Numbered from the stretch's first letter, positions 4,419-46,510 are shown. The stretch: 64,000 nucleotides of DNA from Candidatus Kaiserbacteria bacterium (GCA_016217905.1 JACRFL010000002.1:18817-82816), one strand, 5' to 3'. Program-made: numbers and translations. The notes: a model not told the origin generated them from the sequence alone.

Positions 4419-4766
4419 ATGACCAGAATCAAAGGTGGAGTGCACGCCAATAAGCGCCGCAAGAACGTTCTCGAGCGAGCCAAGGGATACCGCGGCGTCC
4501 GTTCCAAGAAAGAGCGATATGCGCATGAAGCGCTGATGCGTGCCGGTCGCTACGCCTTCGCCCACCGTCGCGACAAGAAGACCGACTTCCGCCAGCTCTG
4601 GATCGTCCGGCTCAACGCCGCCGTCCGCGAGAACGGCCACAAGTCCTACAGTACGTTCATTGCGAAATTCAAGAAGAACGGCTTCCAGCTCGACCGCAAG
4701 GTCCTCGCCCAGTTCGCCTCAGAACACCCTGAGGTCTTCGCACGTATCGCGAGGCAGGTTATCTAA
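4419..4766 (+). CDS. rplT: 50S ribosomal protein L20
   Basis: MTRIKGGVHANKRRKNVLERAKGYRG...; infC-rpmI-rplT operon. Confidence 0.95.
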   Translation: MTRIKGGVHANKRRKNVLERAKGYRGVRSKKERYAHEALMRAGRYAFAHRRDKKTDFRQLWIVRLNAAVRENGHKSYSTFIAKFKKNGFQLDRKVLAQFASEHPEVFARIARQVI

Positions 4767-4799
4767 ACGAAAGCCGCTCCAAAAAGAGTGACTTTCGTT

Positions 4800-6191
4800 T
4801 CAAATCTTCTTTACCGAATCTTTCGTGATTTCCCACGTCTGACCGTAGTCGGGAACGATTGCGTTCCCGCCCAAGTAGTCGTGAATGCGCTGGGCGAGGA
4901 AGCGCTCCTCGGCGGGTTCGCCGATGGCGGTAAAGATGGCTTTCGTACGCCTCTCTGCAAGCGCCGCTTCGGCAAACTGGAGGAGTCCGTCGCGATCGGC
5001 GTGCGCCGACCAGCCCTCGAGCACCTCCACCTTCGCGTGCGCAACCACCTCTGCTCCGTTTATGCGTACCGTCTTCGCGCCCTCCTGGATGCGCCGCCCG
5101 GGGCTCCCGGGGGCCTGGTAGCCGACGATGATAAGCGTGGTCGCCGGGTCGGACAGGTACTGCGTCTCCCAGCGCCCGATGCGGCCGCCGTGGCTCATCC
5201 CCGCGCCAGCGATGATTATTTTCGGGTTCGGCGCCTTCTCTATCGACGCCGACTCTAAGCGTGAATTTGTCTTTGTGAGGAACGGGAATTCAAAAATGCT
5301 CCCTTCCCGCTTCATTTCATCCTCGGTCTCCGGCTTGAAATAGGTCATTCCCCACTTCTCGTAGACCTCCGTTACATGGATTGCAAGCGGCGAATCGAGA
5401 AAGACCGGAATCTGCGGAAGACTGTCTTCCGCAAAAAAGTTGGAGAGCTCGTAGAGCATGAGCTGGGTGCGCTCAAGCGAGAACGCAGGGATGAGGATCG
5501 TGCCGCCGCGGGCTATCGCGCGCACAAGCGTATCGCGCAGCGTCGCAACGCGCGCGCTCGACGGCGGGTGGATCCGATTGCCGTAGACGCTTTCCATCAC
5601 GAGCGCGTCCGCATCCTCTACCGGTTCCCAGTCAGGAAGAAGCGGCGAAGGCGAGTTGCCGATGTCGCCCGTAAGCGCGACGGCGACGCCCACCTCGTCT
5701 CTGATGCGCACGCTCGCGGAACCGAGGATGTGCCCGGTATTGCGCAGATACGCGGAGAGCCCGGGAGCGACCTCTTTTTCCGTATGGTACTCGAACGTTT
5801 CGATGAGCTTGAAGGTTTCCTCAACGTCTTTCTCCTCGTAGAGCGGTTCTCTGCCGCGGCGCGCGGCTTCCTCCGCGAGAATGCCGACGGAATCGCGCAA
5901 GATGAGTTCGGAAAGGTCCCTTGTCGGCGGCGTCATGTAAATTTTCCCGCCAAAGCTGTTCCGCACCAGCTTCGGGATACGGCCGACGTGGTCGAGATGC
6001 GCATGAGTCAGCACGAGCGCGTCGACCGTTTTCACATCGTACGGGAACGGCCCGTACACGCACTCCTCGCATAGGTGAGCACCCTGTTCGATGCCGCAAT
6101 CGACGAGAACTTTCCCGCGTGATCCCTCAATTAAAAAATTGGAACCGGTCACCTTCCCCGCTCCGCCGTAGAAACTAAGTCTGAGTGACAT
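4800..6191 (-). CDS. MBL-fold / beta-CASP family ribonuclease (RNase J/CPSF-like RNA-metabolising hydrolase)
   Basis: HAHLDH metal-binding motif. GG.GKVTGSNFLIE...VLVDCG N-terminus, plus beta-CASP region motifs. Confidence 0.75.
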   Translation of the reverse strand: MSLRLSFYGGAGKVTGSNFLIEGSRGKVLVDCGIEQGAHLCEECVYGPFPYDVKTVDALVLTHAHLDHVGRIPKLVRNSFGGKIYMTPPTRDLSELILRDSVGILAEEAARRGREPLYEEKDVEETFKLIETFEYHTEKEVAPGLSAYLRNTGHILGSASVRIRDEVGVAVALTGDIGNSPSPLLPDWEPVEDADALVMESVYGNRIHPPSSARVATLRDTLVRAIARGGTILIPAFSLERTQLMLYELSNFFAEDSLPQIPVFLDSPLAIHVTEVYEKWGMTYFKPETEDEMKREGSIFEFPFLTKTNSRLESASIEKAPNPKIIIAGAGMSHGGRIGRWETQYLSDPATTLIIVGYQAPGSPGRRIQEGAKTVRINGAEVVAHAKVEVLEGWSAHADRDGLLQFAEAALAERRTKAIFTAIGEPAEERFLAQRIHDYLGGNAIVPDYGQTWEITKDSVKKI

Positions 6192-6507
6192 GCTTATTGT
6201 ATAGATTACTATACAACCGCTCGTTCGGCGAACACGCAGCTATGCGGCATTGCCGTGTGCTGCCGCCTCACTTCGCGGCTGTAACGCCAATCGCCCTGTT
6301 TCCGAAGAAACAGGGCGATTGGCGGAGCCGTTCCCTAGTGCAACTTAATCTTGCCAGGTGGGGTTCCTGCGCGATGGCGTAGGAACGAATAAACGCTCGC
6401 ATTGCTACCGACGACCCGGAACCCCGAGAATTCGGCAAGTTGCGTTTTTAAGAACAGCTCCAGCCCCTAGTATACTCCTGCCGCGCAAAAGGCAAGGGAA
6501 AACTGAA

Positions 6508-6531
6508 AACGCAGCGCATTGCGTGGCTTTT
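6508..6531 (-). terminator. Putative intrinsic terminator downstream of map::ndk
   Basis: Minus-strand hairpin ACGCA-ATGCGC-TGCGT followed by UUUUCAGUUUUCCC. Confidence 0.3.
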
Positions 6532-6532
6532 T

Positions 6533-7903
6533 CTAGTCGCCGTGGCGTTTGTAGCTTTGGATTTTCTTCCCTCCAAACCAGTGATCAATCTCGTGTGCGG
6601 CTTCTTCCGGCGTTTCTGAAGCGTGGAGAATATTCGCTACGGCGCGCTTCTCTGCATTCGCAACCGCCGGTGAATCGTTGGAGAAATCTCCGCGGATGGT
6701 ACCCATATCGGCCTGGTACGGCATCGTCGGTCCGCAAATCTTGCGCACCATGTCCACTGCGTGTGTCCCTTCAACTACCATCTTCACGAGAGGCGCAGAA
6801 AGCATATAGTCTACGAGCCACTTCCGAATCTCGGGACCGATCTCTTCCGGCACCGTGGTGCCGAAGTCCGCCATCGCATCGAATTGGTATTTTTCGTACG
6901 TTACGAGCGTCTTCTCGCCAAGACGCCTAATCCACGCCGCGTCCTTAGGATAGTGGTTATCAACCTCTTCAAATGACGGTTGAAACATCTCGAGCGCAAC
7001 GATCTTGAGATCACGCTGTTCAAAACGCTTTATAACTTCGCCGATGAGGCCTTTCTTCACGCCGTCCGGCTTGATCATTACGTATGTCTTCTCTTCTTTC
7101 GGATTCTTGTTGGCCATGGTTTGAAAAATAAAAGCGCCTGCGGCGGTTATGATACGCGCCCCGCCCTTCTCAAGCAAGATGGTGTGTTCGAAGTGGGCGC
7201 TCCTCGAGCCATCCTTGGTGCGGTAGGTATAGCCGTCGGGAGCTAGGACAACCGCCGCTTTGCCCGCGCTCGCGATGGGCTCGAGCGCGAGCACCATGCC
7301 CTCGGTGAGCAACTCGCCCTTACCCGGGCGGCCGAAGTTCGGAATGAACGGTTCTTCGTGTACGAGGTCGCCGACACCGTGCCCGCCGAGTTCTCTCACC
7401 ACGGTGAATCCCGCCCGCTCAATCTCCTCCTGTATCGCGTGGGAAACATCGCCCATATGATTCCCCGGGACGGCCGCGGCGATGCCCGCCGCAAGCGCGG
7501 CTTCGGTCGCGCGCATAAGCTTCTTGGACACTTCGTCCACCGTGCCCACCGGTACGGTAATCGCCGCGTCGACGACGACGCCCGCGTGGCGCAGGCCGAG
7601 ATCGAGGCCGACGATGTCGCCCTCCTTCAGCGTCTTGGCCGACTCATTCGGAATACCATGCACGACTTCATCGTTAATCGAGACGCACAGCGTCGCCGGA
7701 TACGACCGTCCCGCGCCCTCGGGCGTGTAGCCGAGGAAGCAGGGATCATCGCCTCCGTCGCGGATAAGCCGCTCCGCGAGGTCGTCGAGCTCTTCGGCGG
7801 AAACGCCGGGCGCCACCTTCGCGCGAAGCGCTTTCAACACGGCCGCGAGGCGCTTCCCCGCCTCAATGAGGCTCGCCCGTTCGGTGTCGTTTGCGATTGT
7901 CAT
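6533..7903 (-). CDS. map-ndk: In-frame fusion of methionine aminopeptidase type I (N-terminal about 262 aa, 7118..7903) with nucleoside diphosphate kinase (C-terminal 194 aa, 6533..7117; an internal ATG sits at 7117)
   Basis: MAP metal ligands are present (DIVGLDLG..D, HGVGDLVHE, EHTILL). A linker AAGAFIFQT is followed by MANKN...YVMIKPDGVKKGLIGEVIKRFE...GTIRGDF...NILHASE (NDK catalytic His motif). There is no stop codon between them. Confidence 0.8.
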   Translation of the reverse strand: MTIANDTERASLIEAGKRLAAVLKALRAKVAPGVSAEELDDLAERLIRDGGDDPCFLGYTPEGAGRSYPATLCVSINDEVVHGIPNESAKTLKEGDIVGLDLGLRHAGVVVDAAITVPVGTVDEVSKKLMRATEAALAAGIAAAVPGNHMGDVSHAIQEEIERAGFTVVRELGGHGVGDLVHEEPFIPNFGRPGKGELLTEGMVLALEPIASAGKAAVVLAPDGYTYRTKDGSRSAHFEHTILLEKGGARIITAAGAFIFQTMANKNPKEEKTYVMIKPDGVKKGLIGEVIKRFEQRDLKIVALEMFQPSFEEVDNHYPKDAAWIRRLGEKTLVTYEKYQFDAMADFGTTVPEEIGPEIRKWLVDYMLSAPLVKMVVEGTHAVDMVRKICGPTMPYQADMGTIRGDFSNDSPAVANAEKRAVANILHASETPEEAAHEIDHWFGGKKIQSYKRHGD

Positions 7904-8466
7904 GCGATCTTGAGCGCTGCGTTGATATCGGCGGCGATTTCCTCCGGCGTCTGCTCGCCGTTCACTTCGATAAGCATGCAGGATGTGCGGAACAGCTCGA
8001 TTGCCGGTTCGGTATATTCATAATATTCCTTCAACCGCTCATCAACGACCGCGTCGTCGGCGCGGCTCTCGATCTCTTTTCGAAGATCGAGACGCCGGCG
8101 GACCTCTTTGTCGGAAACCCGGATATTCACAATAATACCCTGCCGTCCGAGCCACGCGAGAGAGTCGATGACGAGCTCGGCCTCCGGTATCTTGCGATTG
8201 AATCCGTCGAAAATGATCCCTCGGTCATCGGGAATTGAAAAGAGGGACTTCAGATAGAGATACATCGCGAACCAATGTGGCTGGAGTTCTCCCGCGTCGT
8301 TTTCGGTTTTTACCTTACGCCCAACCGGCGTGTCCTCTTCTGCAATTTCGCGGAAGAGCTTCCCCGAGGAAAAAACCGTCCAGCCCGTCTTCTGCGAAAG
8401 CAGTTTCGCCTGTGTCCCCTTCCCGCACCCCGGCTTCCCTATAAAAAATATCGTGGGTGTGCCCAT
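7900..8466 (-). CDS. adk: Adenylate kinase (short form, no zinc lid)
   Basis: GKPGCGKGTQA P-loop, plus the G.LFRE and GFNR/DGFPR-type motifs. Confidence 0.9.
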   Translation of the reverse strand: MGTPTIFFIGKPGCGKGTQAKLLSQKTGWTVFSSGKLFREIAEEDTPVGRKVKTENDAGELQPHWFAMYLYLKSLFSIPDDRGIIFDGFNRKIPEAELVIDSLAWLGRQGIIVNIRVSDKEVRRRLDLRKEIESRADDAVVDERLKEYYEYTEPAIELFRTSCMLIEVNGEQTPEEIAADINAALKIA

Positions 8467-8484
8467 CCGCTCACTCTAGCATTT

Positions 8485-9759
8485 TTAGTACTCGCGGAGC
8501 GACACCTGGGCGTCGATCTTGTGGGCGAGGTCGAGAGTGACCTGCACCGCGATGAGAAGCGCCGTGCCGCCGAGAACGAGCGTCGTGACGCCCGTGAGCC
8601 CCTGGATGATGCTCGGCGCGACCGCAAGAAGGCCGAGGAAGACGGCTCCGGGAAGCGTGACGCGATTGACGACCTTGCCGATGTACTCCTCCGTCTCCCG
8701 GCCGGGGCGCACACCCGGAACGAATGCTCCCGATTTTTGGAGATTCTCCGCGACGCGGTGCGGCTCGAACGTGACTGCGGTATAGAAATAGGTGAAGAGC
8801 ACAACGAGCAGGAAGTACGTCGCACCGTAATTCCACGGATTAGAGAGAAATCCTGTGTACCAGAGCGCCGCTCCCGCGGCAAAAGAAACGTGAAGCGCGC
8901 CGAGCATAGAGAGCGCCATCTGCGGCAGGAGAAGGAGGGAGAGCGCGAATATGATGGGGATCACTCCGGCCTGAAGGAGACGGATCGGGAGATACGTCGC
9001 CGCGCCCTGCGAGAGCGCCGCGCCGCGTACCGCGCGCGCGTAGGCGATCGGTATCGAGCGTTCGGCGTCGGAGACGACAACAACCGCGTAGATCATCGCG
9101 AGCGCAAGAAGCGTGAACGCGAGATAGGCGGGGACGCTCGCCGCGGTGGCGGAAAAGAGAGTCTGCGAAATGCTTGAGGGCACTCGAGCGAGGATGCCCG
9201 CGAGAATGATGAGCGACACTCCGTTGCCAATGCCGAACTCGGTCACGAGCTCGCCGAGCCACATGAGAAGCAGGGAGCCGGCAGCGACGAGCGCGATATT
9301 CGCCACAAGCGCCACCGCCCCCAGAGGCGCTATGACGCCCTGTCCCTCGAGCAGGAACAAGAAGCCGATACCCTGCAAAATAGCGATAGGGATTGTGAGT
9401 AGGCGGCTCCACCCGATAAATTTCGCGCGACCTGCCTCGCCTTCCTCAAAGTATGCCTGCTTCACCTGCGGAAAAATAATCGTGCCGAGCTGCATGATGA
9501 TCGATGCGGTGATATAGGGACCGACGCCTAGCATCACGACCGAGAGCTGGGAGAGCCCGCCGCCCGAGAAAATGTTCAGGAGACCGAAAAATTGGTTGTT
9601 CGCAAAGAATGATGCGAGCGCATTTTTATCGACACCCGGGATCGGCACCGACGCGAGAAGGCGGAAGAGCGCAAGCGCCCCGACGAGGAACAGGATCCGG
9701 AAACGAATCTCGGGATCTCCGAAAGAGAGCTTGAGCTTGCGGAAAAAGGAATTAAGCAT
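8485..9759 (-). CDS. secY: Preprotein translocase subunit SecY
   Basis: 10-TM protein with typical SecY N-terminus; sits between rplO and adk. Confidence 0.95.
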   Translation of the reverse strand: MLNSFFRKLKLSFGDPEIRFRILFLVGALALFRLLASVPIPGVDKNALASFFANNQFFGLLNIFSGGGLSQLSVVMLGVGPYITASIIMQLGTIIFPQVKQAYFEEGEAGRAKFIGWSRLLTIPIAILQGIGFLFLLEGQGVIAPLGAVALVANIALVAAGSLLLMWLGELVTEFGIGNGVSLIILAGILARVPSSISQTLFSATAASVPAYLAFTLLALAMIYAVVVVSDAERSIPIAYARAVRGAALSQGAATYLPIRLLQAGVIPIIFALSLLLLPQMALSMLGALHVSFAAGAALWYTGFLSNPWNYGATYFLLVVLFTYFYTAVTFEPHRVAENLQKSGAFVPGVRPGRETEEYIGKVVNRVTLPGAVFLGLLAVAPSIIQGLTGVTTLVLGGTALLIAVQVTLDLAHKIDAQVSLREY

Positions 9760-10204
9760 GGCGGGTGCCGCCGGCGGCCTCGACGGCGGTGAGCGCCGCG
9801 GCGGAAAGTGCGCATTGCTTCACGACAAGCGCTTTCGTGAGAGAACCCGTGCCGAGAATCTTCACTGAAGGCGCGCGGCCCTTCGCCCGGCGCACGAGCC
9901 CTTTGGCAAGCAGAGTCGCCGGCGACACCGTCTCTCCGGCCTTGTACGCCGCTTCAAGCGCGGCGAGATGCACCGTGGACACCGGGATGCGGTTCGTGCG
10001 GACAGTGCGCGCGCGATTCTTGCCGTGGCCGCGGCGCTTCGGGAGTTTCTTGATGAGGTCGCGGACTTCCGGGCGGATCTTGTGCCCGGCGCGGGCGGTC
10101 TGTCCCTTGCCGCCGCGGCCGGAGGTCTTTCCGCGCTTGCCACCGCGGCCGACGGGCGGGTTCTTCTTATTTTTGGTGCGAGGCGCGAGTGTGTGCAGTT
10201 GCAT
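9752..10204 (-). CDS. rplO: 50S ribosomal protein L15
   Basis: GRGGKRGKTSGRGGKGQ glycine/lysine-rich L15 signature. Confidence 0.95.
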   Translation of the reverse strand: MQLHTLAPRTKNKKNPPVGRGGKRGKTSGRGGKGQTARAGHKIRPEVRDLIKKLPKRRGHGKNRARTVRTNRIPVSTVHLAALEAAYKAGETVSPATLLAKGLVRRAKGRAPSVKILGTGSLTKALVVKQCALSAAALTAVEAAGGTRHA

Positions 10205-10214
10205 ATGAAGGGTT

Positions 10215-10841
10215 TTACGCCCCGCGCAATTTCTTCAGTGCGCCGACTGTCGCGCGGGCGATAGTGAGTTTGTTCTTGGAACGGCTGTGGATTTTGGTCA
10301 CCACGTCGGTTACGCCCGCGAGATCGAGCACGGTGCGCACCGCCGAGCCGGCGACAAGGCCACGGCCCTTTGAGGGGATGAACTCGACGACCGAGGATGC
10401 GTATTTCATCGACACCTGGTGCGGAATCGATCCCGATTTCGTACGAGGGACGGCGAAGAGATGTTTCTTCGCGTCGCGCGTCGCCTTGTCGATCGCGAGG
10501 GCGGTGTCGGTTCCCTTGCCGAGGCCGACACCGACGCGACCCTTCTTATCGCCGATCACGACGACGAGGCTGAAGTTGAAGCGGCGACCGCCCGCCATCA
10601 CGCGCGCCACGCGCCGCACGTCGATGGTTACCTGTTCGAACTCGCCCCGTTCCCGCGGCGCACGGCCGCGGCCGGAGCGCGGACCGCGGCTGCGCAGGGA
10701 CCCGCGGCTGCGCTTCCGCGGCGCAGCCGCCGGGGACGCAACCTCCGCGACCGTCGCTTCCGCAGCGGCGTTTCCCTCGACCGCGACTTCCGGAGCGCGT
10801 TCCGTCTCCTGCACCGTTTCCTGTTCCATCGGTGTCGTCAT
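10215..10841 (-). CDS. rpsE: 30S ribosomal protein S5, with an acidic/Ala-rich N-terminal extension of about 70 aa
   Basis: FEQVTIDVRRVARVMAGGRRFNFSLVVVIGDKKGRVGVGLGKG...; directly abuts rplO (no L30 gene). Confidence 0.95.
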   Translation of the reverse strand: MTTPMEQETVQETERAPEVAVEGNAAAEATVAEVASPAAAPRKRSRGSLRSRGPRSGRGRAPRERGEFEQVTIDVRRVARVMAGGRRFNFSLVVVIGDKKGRVGVGLGKGTDTALAIDKATRDAKKHLFAVPRTKSGSIPHQVSMKYASSVVEFIPSKGRGLVAGSAVRTVLDLAGVTDVVTKIHSRSKNKLTIARATVGALKKLRGA

Positions 10842-10844
10842 ATA

Positions 10845-11195
10845 TTAAAATGAGAGTCCTCCTGTGCGCGCGGCGTCCGCGAGCACCTTGACCTGCCCGC
10901 CGTAGCGATAGCCGCCGCGATCGAAGACAACGGCGATGATTCCCGCGGCTTTCGCCTTCTTCGCGATCGCTTCTCCGACGGACGCCGCTTGCACCGACTG
11001 CGATCCTTTGAACTCGCGGCCGTGTGCCGCGGCAATCGTCTTTCCCGCCGTGTCGTCGATGAGCTGCGCGGAGACGAATCGATTGCTCCGGTGGACGGCA
11101 AGGCGCGGCCGCTTTGCGGTACCCGAGACGCGTGCGCGCACGCGCGCGTGGCGGCGTTTGCGAAGCTCACTTTTCGTCGTGGGTTTGTGATTCAT
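10845..11195 (-). CDS. rplR: 50S ribosomal protein L18
   Basis: RLAVHRSNRFVSAQLIDD...GIIAVVFDRGGYRYGG. Confidence 0.95.
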   Translation of the reverse strand: MNHKPTTKSELRKRRHARVRARVSGTAKRPRLAVHRSNRFVSAQLIDDTAGKTIAAAHGREFKGSQSVQAASVGEAIAKKAKAAGIIAVVFDRGGYRYGGQVKVLADAARTGGLSF

Positions 11196-43941: not shown

Positions 43942-44013
43942 GCCATCGTGGTGAAATGGATATCACATCTGACTTCGGATCAGACGTTCCGGGTTCGAAT
44001 CCTGGCGATGGCA
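43942..44013 (+). tRNA. tRNA-Arg (anticodon TCG)
   Basis: Manual fold. Acceptor GCCATCG/CGATGGC. D-stem GTGA/TCAC. Anticodon stem TCTGA/TCAGA with loop CTTCGGA. T-arm CCGGG-TTCGAAT-CCTGG. 72 nt, no encoded CCA. Confidence 0.7.
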
Positions 44014-44055
44014 CTGGAAAAAGAAATGGACGACATGGTATTATGTCGCCCAGCA

Positions 44056-44129
44056 GCGGGTATGGTTCAATGGTAGAACATCTGGTTGCCAATCAGATGA
44101 TGGGAGTTCGATTCTCCCTACCCGCACCA
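44056..44129 (+). tRNA. tRNA-Gly (anticodon GCC)
   Basis: Manual fold. Acceptor GCGGGTA/TACCCGC. D-arm GTTC-AATGGTA-GAAC. Anticodon loop TTGCCAA. T-arm GGGAG-TTCGATT-CTCCC. Encoded CCA. 74 nt. Confidence 0.8.
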
Positions 44130-44262
44130 GAAAGGCGGAAAATGTGACCGCAAAACGACTTTTGTAGCTGTGCAAAAGTCTGTGGACATTGGGGATAAAG
44201 GACAGATGACTTTTGGAGGAGTCCGTGAAATAGTGAGGAAGTGAGCCATATTTCTAAAGGCC

Positions 44263-44658
44263 GTGGACATCTCTTCTAGGACTCGCAAAGAAGTCGGGGC
44301 GATCGGAGAAAAAACAGCCGCCGAGTACCTCCGGCGACATGGATTCGCCGTTGTAGATCACAACGTCGCACGCAAAACGGGGGAGATCGATCTCGTCGCG
44401 CAGAAGGAAAACACGCTGCATTTTGTCGAGGTGAAGACGATGCTCTCCGACGAATTTCCGGATGAAAAACATGCGGGAGACGATTATGACCCGTCTATCA
44501 ACCTGCACGAAGCGAAGATACGGAAAGTCGCGCGCACGGGGGAGTGGTATGTCCTTGAGCACGGATGGGAGGGGGAGTGGCAAGTGGACGGGTGCCTCGT
44601 GTGGCTGCGTCGCCGGGACGGCATGGGGAAAGTCCGCTATCTGCCACAAATCGTCTGA
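44263..44658 (+). CDS. yraN: YraN/UPF0102-family endonuclease-like protein
   Basis: GEKTAAEYLRRHGFAVVDHNVARKTGEIDLVAQKENTLHFVEVKT matches the UPF0102 pattern. Confidence 0.75.
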   Translation: MDISSRTRKEVGAIGEKTAAEYLRRHGFAVVDHNVARKTGEIDLVAQKENTLHFVEVKTMLSDEFPDEKHAGDDYDPSINLHEAKIRKVARTGEWYVLEHGWEGEWQVDGCLVWLRRRDGMGKVRYLPQIV

Positions 44659-44702
44659 CGATGCTACAGTGCGGGCAGCCCCTTGATATAGCTCGGGGCA
44701 AG

Positions 44703-44773
44703 CGGGCCGGAGTATGCCGGTAGTACGCGTCCTTTGGGAGGATGTAGACCGAGTTCAATTCTCGGCGGCCCGA
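44703..44773 (+). tRNA. tRNA-Pro (anticodon TGG)
   Basis: Manual fold. Acceptor CGGGCCG/CGGCCCG. Anticodon stem CGTCC/GGATG with loop TTTGGGA. T-arm CCGAG-TTCAATT-CTCGG. 71 nt, no encoded CCA. Confidence 0.65.
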
Positions 44774-44811
44774 TATACTCCTGAAACGTTTGCCCCGTTC
44801 ACGCACTTTCA

Positions 44812-45237
44812 TTGCCCGCTTGTGCAGGGGGGTCTGGTATGATTTACAGTATGAATAATCAAAAAATGGTTACGTGGATCTTGCGCGTTGCGGTTGCGGG
44901 CGAATTCATCGGACATGGCGTTTTCGCACTTCAAGGCAAAAAACAGTGGGTTGAGTGGTTTACCATTTTCGGCATTTCTGACGCAGGTGTAGCCACTCAA
45001 CTTCTGTTTTTCATTGGCCTTCTCGATATCGCGGTTGCGCTGGTTGTCCTTGTCTGGCCGGTTCGCGCGGTTCTGCTCTGGGCCGCGTTTTGGGGGTTTT
45101 GGACCGCGCTTATGCGCCCGATTGCTGGCGATCCGATCTGGGACTTCGTAGAACGTTGGGCGAACTGTGGCGCGCCTTTGGCGTTACTTCTCCTTGTTGG
45201 CTGGCCGAGGAGCTTGCGGGAGTGGTTTGGAAGATAA
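44812..45237 (+). CDS. Hypothetical 4-TM membrane protein (DoxX-like topology)
   Basis: Four hydrophobic helices; start may be the internal MNNQKMV. Confidence 0.45.
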   Translation: MPACAGGSGMIYSMNNQKMVTWILRVAVAGEFIGHGVFALQGKKQWVEWFTIFGISDAGVATQLLFFIGLLDIAVALVVLVWPVRAVLLWAAFWGFWTALMRPIAGDPIWDFVERWANCGAPLALLLLVGWPRSLREWFGR

Positions 45238-45255
45238 CGCCGCAATTCTTACGCA

Positions 45256-46377
45256 TCAGGGGAGTTGTGCGACGAGAACTGCCTCAAGAGCCGGTATCCG
45301 AAGGGAGAATTCAGTTATGACTGCCGAGATCGGCCCGGCGAGAAGCACGTCGAGCGCCCGGCCGGTCTCGCCTGCGTATGCGGCGCGAATGTAGGACGCC
45401 GTAATGGCGTCGAGTGCGCGGGTCTCCGTCGCGCCCTTAATGGTGCTCGTCGTGATGGTACCCACGAGCTCGCCCGAAGCGGAGGCGACTCCGCCGCCGG
45501 AAGACCCTTCCTGCGCGGCAGCCGAGCCGCCAAGCGCGAAGACATCGACGGTGTTCGTCGCGAACGTAAAAACGCCCTTCACTAGGCCGAACACGATCGT
45601 CGGAAAAAGTGACGATTGTATCTGATCCGCCGTAAGAAACTGTGCGCCGTACGAGGCGATGACGACCGGCGTTCCCTCGGAAGGCGGCGTCAACGCCAGC
45701 GGCACGGAAGGAAAGGTTTGGGGAAGCGGTGCGGATGTCGCGCTTTTTGTGATGGCAAGCAGCGCAAAATCGTATTCGCCTGTTCCTGTCGGCTCGATTT
45801 GTGCAATCACGCGCGCATTCGCGCTCACCCATGAGGGCGAGATGTAGGCGAGTGCCGCCCGATAGCGGTCGGCGGCCGGAGTGCCCGCGCGGATCGTGCA
45901 GGAAACGCCGCGGTCGGCGAGGAGGAAGTATTGCGCGATGTGGGCGTTGGTGAGGATGACGCCCTTCGGGTCGATCATCACCCCGCTGCCGCTTATGGAA
46001 TGCAGGCCGCTCCCGGAGGGGACGTAGCACAGGATATTCACGAGCGCGCTGCGCAGTGCCGAAGCGGCGGCATCGAGAGCGCCGGCAGACGAAGACGGCG
46101 CGGCGACTGGCGCCGGGGCGGGGACTTCTGCCGCGACGGGTTTTTCAGGCTTCTTCGGAGGCGTCTTATGTGTCGCGGGGGCGCTCGTCGCAGCGCTTGT
46201 TTCGGTTCTTGAAGAGTGACGTTCCGGCGAGGCTACGGAGAGCGACGGAGGGGACTCGGGAAGAGCGGATTCCGGAGGCGGCGAGGAGACCACGCCGCCG
46301 AAAAACGCCAGAGTGAAAACGCCGAAAAGAAGTGCGGCGATAATGCCGAGGTAGGGCGTGAAGCGCGACATATTCAT
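45256..46377 (-). CDS. Membrane-anchored trypsin-like (S1 family) serine peptidase
   Basis: N-terminal TM. His region GVILTNAHI. Ser region GSSGGGV (the GDSGGP-like motif). Pro/Ala-rich linker. Confidence 0.7.
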   Translation of the reverse strand: MNMSRFTPYLGIIAALLFGVFTLAFFGGVVSSPPPESALPESPPSLSVASPERHSSRTETSAATSAPATHKTPPKKPEKPVAAEVPAPAPVAAPSSSAGALDAAASALRSALVNILCYVPSGSGLHSISGSGVMIDPKGVILTNAHIAQYFLLADRGVSCTIRAGTPAADRYRAALAYISPSWVSANARVIAQIEPTGTGEYDFALLAITKSATSAPLPQTFPSVPLALTPPSEGTPVVIASYGAQFLTADQIQSSLFPTIVFGLVKGVFTFATNTVDVFALGGSAAAQEGSSGGGVASASGELVGTITTSTIKGATETRALDAITASYIRAAYAGETGRALDVLLAGPISAVITEFSLRIPALEAVLVAQLP

Positions 46378-46409
46378 ACGCTAGCGCAAAAATGCTATTC
46401 TCGCACTAC

Positions 46410-46480
46410 GCGGGACTAGTTTAGTGGCAGAACAGGAGGTTTCCAACCTTCTAGCGGGAGTTCGATTCTCCCGTCCCGCA
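46410..46480 (+). tRNA. tRNA-Gly (anticodon TCC)
   Basis: Manual fold. Acceptor GCGGGAC/GTCCCGC. D-arm GTTT-AGTGGCA-GAAC. Anticodon loop TTTCCAA. T-arm GGGAG-TTCGATT-CTCCC. 71 nt. Confidence 0.7.
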
Positions 46481-46510
46481 CAAAATCGTGAGGAGGAGTA
46501 CCATAGGCGC

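Follow-up and report, generated by a model that had tools for sequence, protein, structure and literature searches.

A map–ndk gene fusion private to one Candidatus Kaiserbacteria genome and its likely origin by loss of a stop codon

One reading frame for methionine aminopeptidase and nucleoside diphosphate kinase

The DNA analysed here, a 64-kb stretch referred to as the window, comes from a Candidatus Kaiserbacteria bacterium of the Patescibacteria lineage; its best matches are labelled Candidatus Kaiserbacteria or Paceibacterota. On the minus strand, the genes for type I methionine aminopeptidase (Map) and nucleoside diphosphate kinase (NDK) share a single open reading frame (ORF) of 456 codons, which runs from 7903 down to 6533 with no internal stop (Table 1). 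A first-pass annotation of the sequence had proposed this in-frame fusion, with a 9-aa linker and an internal ATG at 7117 lying exactly at the NDK start. The frame was confirmed, its junction recurs base for base on a Logan contig (L080, below), and the coordinates given for linker and ATG proved correct.

Each half of the predicted protein aligned with a complete enzyme. Peptidase_M24 (Pfam PF00557) was assigned to aa 12–245 of the fused ORF (E 6.9e-42, 144 bits against a cutoff of 23), and aa 7–253 could be aligned with the T. maritima MetAP structure 1o0x (E 2e-61), up to the last ordered residues of that structure. The last homologous Map residue is T253, encoded at 7147–7145. All five metal ligands of Map are present (D101, D112, H175, E208 and E239), and identical residues are aligned with them in 1o0x. 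NDK (Pfam PF00334) was detected in the same ORF with an E-value of 4.2e-35 (121 bits against a cutoff of 27). Its active-site residues are in place, i.e., K278 within MIKPDG, R404, N424 and the catalytic H427 within NILHASE; K278 and N424/H427 are aligned with the ILKPDA and NLVHASD motifs of PDB 1xqi. The NDK is complete and carries both motifs, as the annotation had stated. The two halves are 86% (Map) and 91% (NDK) identical to separate proteins of relatives, and the ORF is therefore not a chance pattern. A single-sequence AlphaFold model of the fusion was uninformative (mean predicted local distance difference test score, pLDDT, 38).

The annotation had also drawn attention to an insertion of about 40 aa in the NDK half. 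The insertion is real but not novel. The half could be aligned with 1xqi, a 195-aa NDK that we take to be from Pyrobaculum aerophilum, over 177 residues without a gap (E 5e-49), with both extra segments covered. Ordinary NDKs of 135–160 aa matched it in two stretches, leaving a gap at query aa 58–99, and the stand-alone NDKs of relatives are likewise long (189–201 aa). By these alignments, the insertion is that of the known long 1xqi-type NDK, ordinary for the lineage, and would not be a feature of the fusion.

The fused junction in a second assembly

An independent Logan assembly of run SRR12113407 contains a contig, L080, that spans the junction and matches window positions 6584–9271 with 100% identity over 2,688 nt. 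It holds the junction 41-mer as well as a 440-aa ORF that begins at the map start and is cut off within ndk by the end of the contig. The neighbouring contigs L081 and L082 correspond to window 4679–6611 with 0 mismatches and to window 9253–10926 with 1 mismatch. Since a second assembly pipeline yields the same unbroken junction, the fusion cannot be put down to one assembler. The lengths of the proteins encoded by adk (188 aa), secY (424 aa) and the beta-CASP nuclease gene (463 aa) are exactly those found in relatives, and indel errors are therefore not widespread in the region. Taken together, these comparisons make the presence of the fusion in genuine DNA well supported, although not proven. 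The Logan contigs break at window 6584–6611 and 9253–9271, neither of which is at the fusion junction; these breaks and the one-base difference in L082 hint at strain-level variation in the sampled population.

Comparison with related loci and protein collections

We compared the window with 69 related loci in which both genes and the junction are covered, representing 54 distinct junction sequences. All 69 keep the order secY-adk-map-ndk-beta-CASP, and none is fused (0/69 loci, 0/54 distinct junctions), with a stop codon after Map in every case. Map in the relatives usually has 254 aa and ends ...ARIITx-TAA. The distance from the map stop to the ndk ATG is -11 or -1 nt, 10–82 nt (mode 28–30) or 430–930 nt. 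The nearest relatives, whose NDKs are 90–91% identical to that of the window (L083/L084 and L085), end map with ...ATA ACT GCG TAA and ...GTG ACC GCA TAA, and the ndk ATG comes 29 and 31 nt later; overall, the spacers of the nearest relatives measure 28–31 nt. An established bifunctional architecture is thus not supported: the orthologous loci have separate genes with an intervening stop, the observation that the first-pass annotation itself had named as one that would refute its reading.

Searches of large collections led in the same direction. In a full-length search of 5.8e9 clusters, the 120 top-ranked matches to the whole protein were all Map-only (~ 254 aa, 80–86% identical). For the NDK half, the 120 top-ranked homologues were all NDK-only (181–208 aa). 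An exhaustive HMMER phmmer search of 1.84 billion representatives returned no Map+NDK protein among the best 150 matches listed, down to 189 bits. The annotation had not recognised the architecture as described, and the full-length and HMMER searches agree with it. Neither the exact 456-aa protein nor its 253-aa Map part is in a 15-billion-protein collection, the junction 41-mer was absent from JGI metagenome contigs in an exact search, and no second fusion was found in genome contigs or in metagenome contigs searched by protein. A literature search retrieved no paper linking Map and NDK as a fusion. Over-long Map representatives were considered as hidden Map-NDK proteins and rejected, as Pfam assigned them to Map-RuvX, Adk-Map or tails without an assigned domain. 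Judged by these comparisons, the fusion is private to this one genome and does not represent a conserved bifunctional family; at the sensitivity of the searches the Map+NDK combination was not found elsewhere, while the type of event is well known.

A putative 8-nt deletion at the end of map

The junction of the window reads ...ATC ATA ACC GCC GCA GGC GCT TTT ATT TTT CAA ACC ATG. Re-inserting one copy of ATAACCGC next to that at 7150–7143 gives ...ATC ATA ACC GCA TAA, then CCGCCGCAGGCGCTTTTATTTTTCAAACC (29 nt), then ATG. The Map restored in this manner has 254 aa, ends ARIITA* and matches the arrangement most common among relatives. At the spot of the deletion, relatives have ATAACCGCATAACC(G/C). 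Three of them, L003, L013 and L058, read ATCATAACCGCATAACC... at the scar position: L003 and L013 have ...ATC ATA ACC GCA TAA CC..., and L058 has ...ATT ATT ACC GCA TAA CCGCCGCAGGCGCTTTTATTTTTAAACT ATG, with a spacer nearly identical to the linker DNA of the window. Because a single added ATAACCGC recovers precisely the canonical arrangement, the fusion would be accounted for by one slippage deletion within a perfect tandem 8-mer. Slipped-strand mispairing classically leads to the loss of one repeat unit in this way. The in-frame codon two before the ATG is CAA in the window, L006, L051, L059 and L063 and TAA in several other relatives, and therefore one event would suffice only on the CAA variant of the spacer.

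The linker DNA and the internal ndk start

The linker DNA consists of a small hairpin, a T-run and an A/T-rich ndk leader, of which hairpin and T-run are now read as A-A-G-A-F-I-F. The short spacers of relatives are built in the same way, with a small GC hairpin, then (A/C)TTT(T)ATTTTT, a few bases and the ndk ATG. We observed among them a conserved GC hairpin of 4–7 bp directly 5' of ATTTATTTTT, just upstream of the start codon. In 19 of 24 short spacers, a hairpin of 4 bp or more lies directly against the T-run, compared with 3.6 ± 1.6 after shuffling, and 0 of 2000 shuffles reached 19; the 24 spacers are related sequences, so this count overstates their independence. Nine versions of the stem were seen in the relatives, including CGCC/GGCG, CCGC/GCGG, CCCG/CGGG, CTGC/GCGG and GCCC/GGGC, with pairing kept. 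The linker hairpin of the window has a 4-bp stem and a stability of -4.4 kcal/mol, no better than shuffles, and the terminator scan of the window did not call it. As an intrinsic (Rho-independent) terminator, for which a stable GC-rich stem of at least 5 bp followed by a U-run was required, it is therefore not supported, although its position and pairing are conserved in relatives. We treat it as a conserved intercistronic element that may serve as a weak attenuator or as an RNA-end, stability or processing element, or may belong to the initiation region of ndk. We set aside programmed frameshifting and slippage of transcription on the T-runs, judging the runs of 4 and 5 T too short and seeing no supporting signal.

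The genes of the operon mostly lack a Shine-Dalgarno sequence, and their starts are preceded by A/T-rich leaders. The -30..+30 context of the ATG at 7117 has a folding energy of -7.8 kcal/mol and is 65% A/T upstream. True starts in the window average -11.2 ± 4.3 kcal/mol and 55% A/T, and internal ATGs -15.9 ± 5.2 kcal/mol and 40% A/T; just 2% of 188 internal ATGs match the ATG at 7117 on both measures. A local lack of structure at the start has been described as sufficient for Shine-Dalgarno-independent initiation (PMC3121790). Since the ndk initiation region is unchanged, low in structure and A/T-rich, the internal ATG probably continues to yield free NDK of 194 aa. The first-pass annotation had offered a fusion protein and an internal ndk start as alternatives; both are probably true together.

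Variation of the map–ndk junction in relatives

The stop codon of map and the start codon of ndk overlap as TAATG in L020, L023, L028, L060, L066 and L070, and in L055 an extended Map (…VTQYYGQ*) overlaps the ndk start by 11 nt. These overlaps suggest translational coupling of the gene pair (on coupling, see PMC10666635 and PMC12548453).

Other relatives have gained DNA at this position. L006 carries a 439-nt insert between map and ndk (L006:3599-4037; the same in L007) that gives Map a new C-terminus, ...VVTAAE*. At its own 3' end the insert carries a further copy of the usual end of map with its spacer (GCGTATCATGACTGCATAA + CCTGCCTTGCGCGGGATTTATTTTTCAAACT + ATG). From the repeated map end and the new C-terminus it follows that the insertion occurred inside the end of map. 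The insert has no Rfam match and contains only weak ORFs. Whole extra genes lie between map and ndk at L016:3766-4348, L018:3769-4397 and L025:2103-3030, and also in L047, L048, L064, L067, L069 and L073. The inserted ORFs include a 173-aa Nudix-like protein, a 181-aa membrane protein on the opposite strand and a 262-aa metallophosphoesterase-like protein, all assigned by eye from motifs. Compared across these loci, the map–ndk junction is an insertion/deletion hotspot in the lineage.

The ndk genes found in the same syntenic slot (L001–L087) fall into three classes by identity to the NDK of the window, i.e., 80–91% (47 loci), ~ 40–45% (11 loci) and 31–34% (9 loci, including the 158-aa NDK of L001). 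Despite these three classes, the adjacent Map is 74–86% identical in nearly all loci. This suggests that ndk has been replaced in situ by distant homologues, or that rates have been very uneven.

Related architectures

Stand-alone type I Map enzymes (T. maritima 1o0x; E. coli 1mat/2mat) resemble the Map half in having a full Peptidase_M24 domain of ~ 253 aa without an N-terminal extension and with the five ligands, and the position of the gene, after adk at the end of an spc-type ribosomal-protein cluster, is also that of a stand-alone Map. They differ in that the fused Map lacks a stop of its own and is followed by 203 extra C-terminal residues (linker and NDK). The NDK half shares with 1xqi the gapless alignment, the N-x-x-H-A-S-(D/E) motif and both extra segments; unlike 1xqi, it has no separate upstream stop, so that it forms the C-terminal domain of Map and is probably also free. 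With the separate map–ndk pairs of Kaiserbacteria and Paceibacteria relatives, the TAATG-overlapping ones included, the locus shares gene order, spacer elements and ndk start, but these pairs keep the Map stop where the window has a 27-nt in-frame linker.

Joining of a type I Map to a small enzyme encoded by an adjacent gene is also seen in Map-RuvX (P0133 and P0216; 391 and 395 aa) and Adk-Map (P0145 and P0157; 445 and 444 aa), Pfam-assigned proteins of the 1.84-billion library, with a different partner domain. Since such proteins exist, an added domain at either the N- or the C-terminus is not incompatible with the Map fold. In the eukaryotic multidomain NDKs of the NME5/7/8/9 group, the NDK domain likewise stands behind another domain on one chain; their partners are unrelated domains (DM10, thioredoxin and Dpy-30), and the group is ancient, conserved and eukaryotic, unlike the fusion described here.

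Proposed history of the fusion and competing explanations

We consider it likely that the ORF is a recent in-frame gene fusion, private to this Candidatus Kaiserbacteria genome, which arose by a slippage deletion that removed the stop codon of map. The ancestor would have had a secY-adk-map-ndk operon end, with a 254-aa Map terminating in ...ARIITA-TAA and a 29-nt spacer that held the hairpin, T-run and A/T-rich leader. In it, the end of map and the start of the spacer would have formed the perfect tandem ATAACCGC-ATAACCGC across the stop codon. Replication slippage could then have removed one 8-nt copy, and with it codon 254 and the TAA, leaving 27 stop-free nt in frame with ndk. Ribosomes starting at map would read the former spacer as AAGAFIFQT and continue into ndk, producing a Map-NDK chain of ~ 50 kDa in which an intact aminopeptidase domain is tethered to an intact NDK by ~ 19 flexible residues (the linker and ~ 10 residues, MANKNPKEEK). 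The Shine-Dalgarno-independent initiation region of ndk would remain untouched and still give rise to the free 194-aa NDK. That the deletion took place in vivo, and which proteins are made, we infer from the DNA; the fusion protein and the internally initiated NDK are probably made at once, and both enzyme activities are probably retained. As for its effect, the most likely case is a neutral or slightly harmful fusion, not an adaptive one. Nothing in the sequence suggests that it has been selected: it is a singleton, and its linker is unaltered intergenic DNA.

Several observations weigh against this history. The junction comes from one sample only, and the source assembly and the Logan contig may share the same reads, which leaves some room for a minority allele or for an artefact of the reads or of amplification. 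GenBank evidently carries no annotation of a fusion: the NDK half is identical to NCBI protein MBI5405539.1, a separate 194-aa NDK of Candidatus Kaiserbacteria bacterium, on a 127,210-nt contig, whose gene starts at the internal ATG. For Map, by contrast, no product from this genome is on record, of either 456 or 253 aa. The Map was probably flagged as a pseudogene or left unannotated. In addition, the hairpin and U-run, if they terminated transcription, would leave Map on non-stop mRNAs, which should be costly; this argues either for a hairpin that terminates inefficiently or for a transient, deleterious allele. A first rival, an artefact or a minority allele, with the dominant genome unfused and the deletion introduced by library amplification, sequencing or consensus building or confined to a rare subpopulation, keeps some weight because only one sample supports the junction. 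It would fit a singleton absent from 69/69 related loci and from the JGI contigs and the separate annotation of ndk in GenBank, and the Logan breaks together with the single difference in L082 point to some strain heterogeneity. Polymerases also tend to slip on tandem repeats, both in vitro and in vivo. However, two assembly pipelines gave the identical junction with no break inside a 2.7-kb contig, the neighbouring genes have no frameshifts and exact ortholog lengths, and an in-frame, stop-free outcome is what would be expected of a variant that survives selection. An 8-nt deletion is, moreover, atypical of short-read or homopolymer-type errors, and we regard such an origin as unlikely.

If the junction is genuine, the fusion could still have been selected as a bifunctional enzyme, e.g., for a fixed Map:NDK stoichiometry or for tethering an NDK that regenerates nucleoside triphosphates (NTP) or GTP to the ribosome-associated Map. 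The adjacency of map and ndk in 69/69 related loci, the coupling suggested by the TAATG overlaps, the integrity of both domains and an architecture not known elsewhere (none among the best 150 HMMER matches) would suit this explanation. It is nevertheless very unlikely: the fusion does not recur in any of the 54 distinct junctions, including those of relatives with NDKs 90–91% identical, its linker is unmodified intergenic DNA with hairpin, T-run and ndk leader that had no time for, and bears no sign of, optimisation, and the unrelated genes that separate map from ndk in other relatives indicate that close coupling of the products is not required in the lineage. We give equally little credence to incipient pseudogenisation of map, in which stop loss harms Map through misfolding, degradation or non-stop mRNA and only the internally started NDK is functional. 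The missing Map record would agree with a pseudogene flag in GenBank, and the ORF now includes a terminator-like hairpin with its U-run, but Map is normally essential and the 64-kb window holds no second map. The Map half is also complete to its last conserved residue with every metal ligand present, C-terminal Map fusions such as Map-RuvX occur elsewhere, and the linker hairpin is weak.

It is highly improbable, in our estimate, that the fusion is both fixed in its Kaiserbacteria population and functional. If so, it would be the first Map-NDK bifunctional protein, with a second, internal NDK product, and would place an NTP-regenerating kinase on a ribosome-associated enzyme of N-terminal processing, just born from a translationally linked pair. 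Nothing in our data is evidence for a new enzyme family, for new biology of either enzyme or for nucleotide metabolism being functionally linked to the excision of N-terminal methionine. Under the stop-loss history that we favour, the locus matters for another reason. That multidomain proteins arise when neighbouring operon genes are joined by loss of a stop codon is textbook knowledge, but, to our knowledge, such fusions have rarely been seen at so early a stage. Here the mutation can be retraced to the single base, the linker can still be recognised as intergenic DNA by its hairpin, its U-run and the leader of the downstream gene, and the close relatives are all unfused, which makes the locus a clean natural example of the birth of a fusion and a possible test case for retained internal initiation of a downstream gene. 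Because the Map of this genome is apparently missing from protein databases, completeness and essential-gene surveys of this metagenome-assembled genome would wrongly score map as absent.

Genomic neighbourhood

The fused ORF lies downstream of secY and adk and is followed by a terminator-like hairpin with a T-run, which is probably the end of the operon (Table 1). Beyond the beta-CASP nuclease gene come rplT and infC on the opposite strand; relatives share the order secY-adk-map-ndk-beta-CASP, then rplT-rpmI-infC. The genes infA-rpmJ-rpsM-rpsK-rpsD-rpoA-rplQ do not follow map in the window. This absence had been noted in the first-pass annotation; the absence stands, but with the same order in relatives, the lack of these alpha-operon genes after map is evidently typical of the lineage and no feature of the fusion. 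No second copy of map or ndk was found in the window.

Table 1. Features of the map–ndk locus and its surroundings, in window coordinates
Feature	Position	Strand	Remarks
Fused map-ndk ORF	6533..7903	minus	456 aa + stop (TAG at 6535-6533); Pfam Peptidase_M24 + NDK
Type I methionine aminopeptidase part	7145..7903	minus	aa 1-253
Putative deletion scar	7143..7150	minus	single remaining copy of ATAACCGC; a second copy in tandem would restore GCA-TAA
Hairpin and T-run of the linker	7124..7145	minus	CGCC-GCA-GGCG at 7145-7135, T-run CTTTTATTTTT at 7134-7124; also A/T-rich ndk leader
Linker AAGAFIFQT	7118..7144	minus	9 codons, aa 254-262; putative former map-ndk intergenic spacer, now in frame
Native ndk start codon	7115..7117	minus	Met263 of the fusion; ATG shared with ndk of relatives
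Nucleoside diphosphate kinase part	6536..7117	minus	aa 263-456, 194 aa; long 1xqi-like type
Predicted junction tryptic peptide of the fusion			IITAAGAFIFQTMANK
Terminator-like hairpin + T-run	6509..6524	minus	9 nt past the stop of the fused ORF; from the terminator scan
beta-CASP/RMMBL nuclease	4800-6191	minus	463 aa; downstream of the fused ORF
adk	7900..8466	minus	188 aa; stop overlaps map start (ATGA); identical protein on L080
secY	8485-9759	minus	424 aa; upstream of adk
rplO	9752-10204	minus	in the upstream ribosomal-protein cluster

Rfam reported only tRNAs, both in the window and in L006. Those of the window lie at 43942–46481 on the plus strand and comprise tRNA-Arg(TCG), tRNA-Gly(GCC), tRNA-Pro(TGG) and tRNA-Gly(TCC); tRNA-Pro, at 44703–44773, was missed by the Rfam gathering threshold, and the other three were reported.

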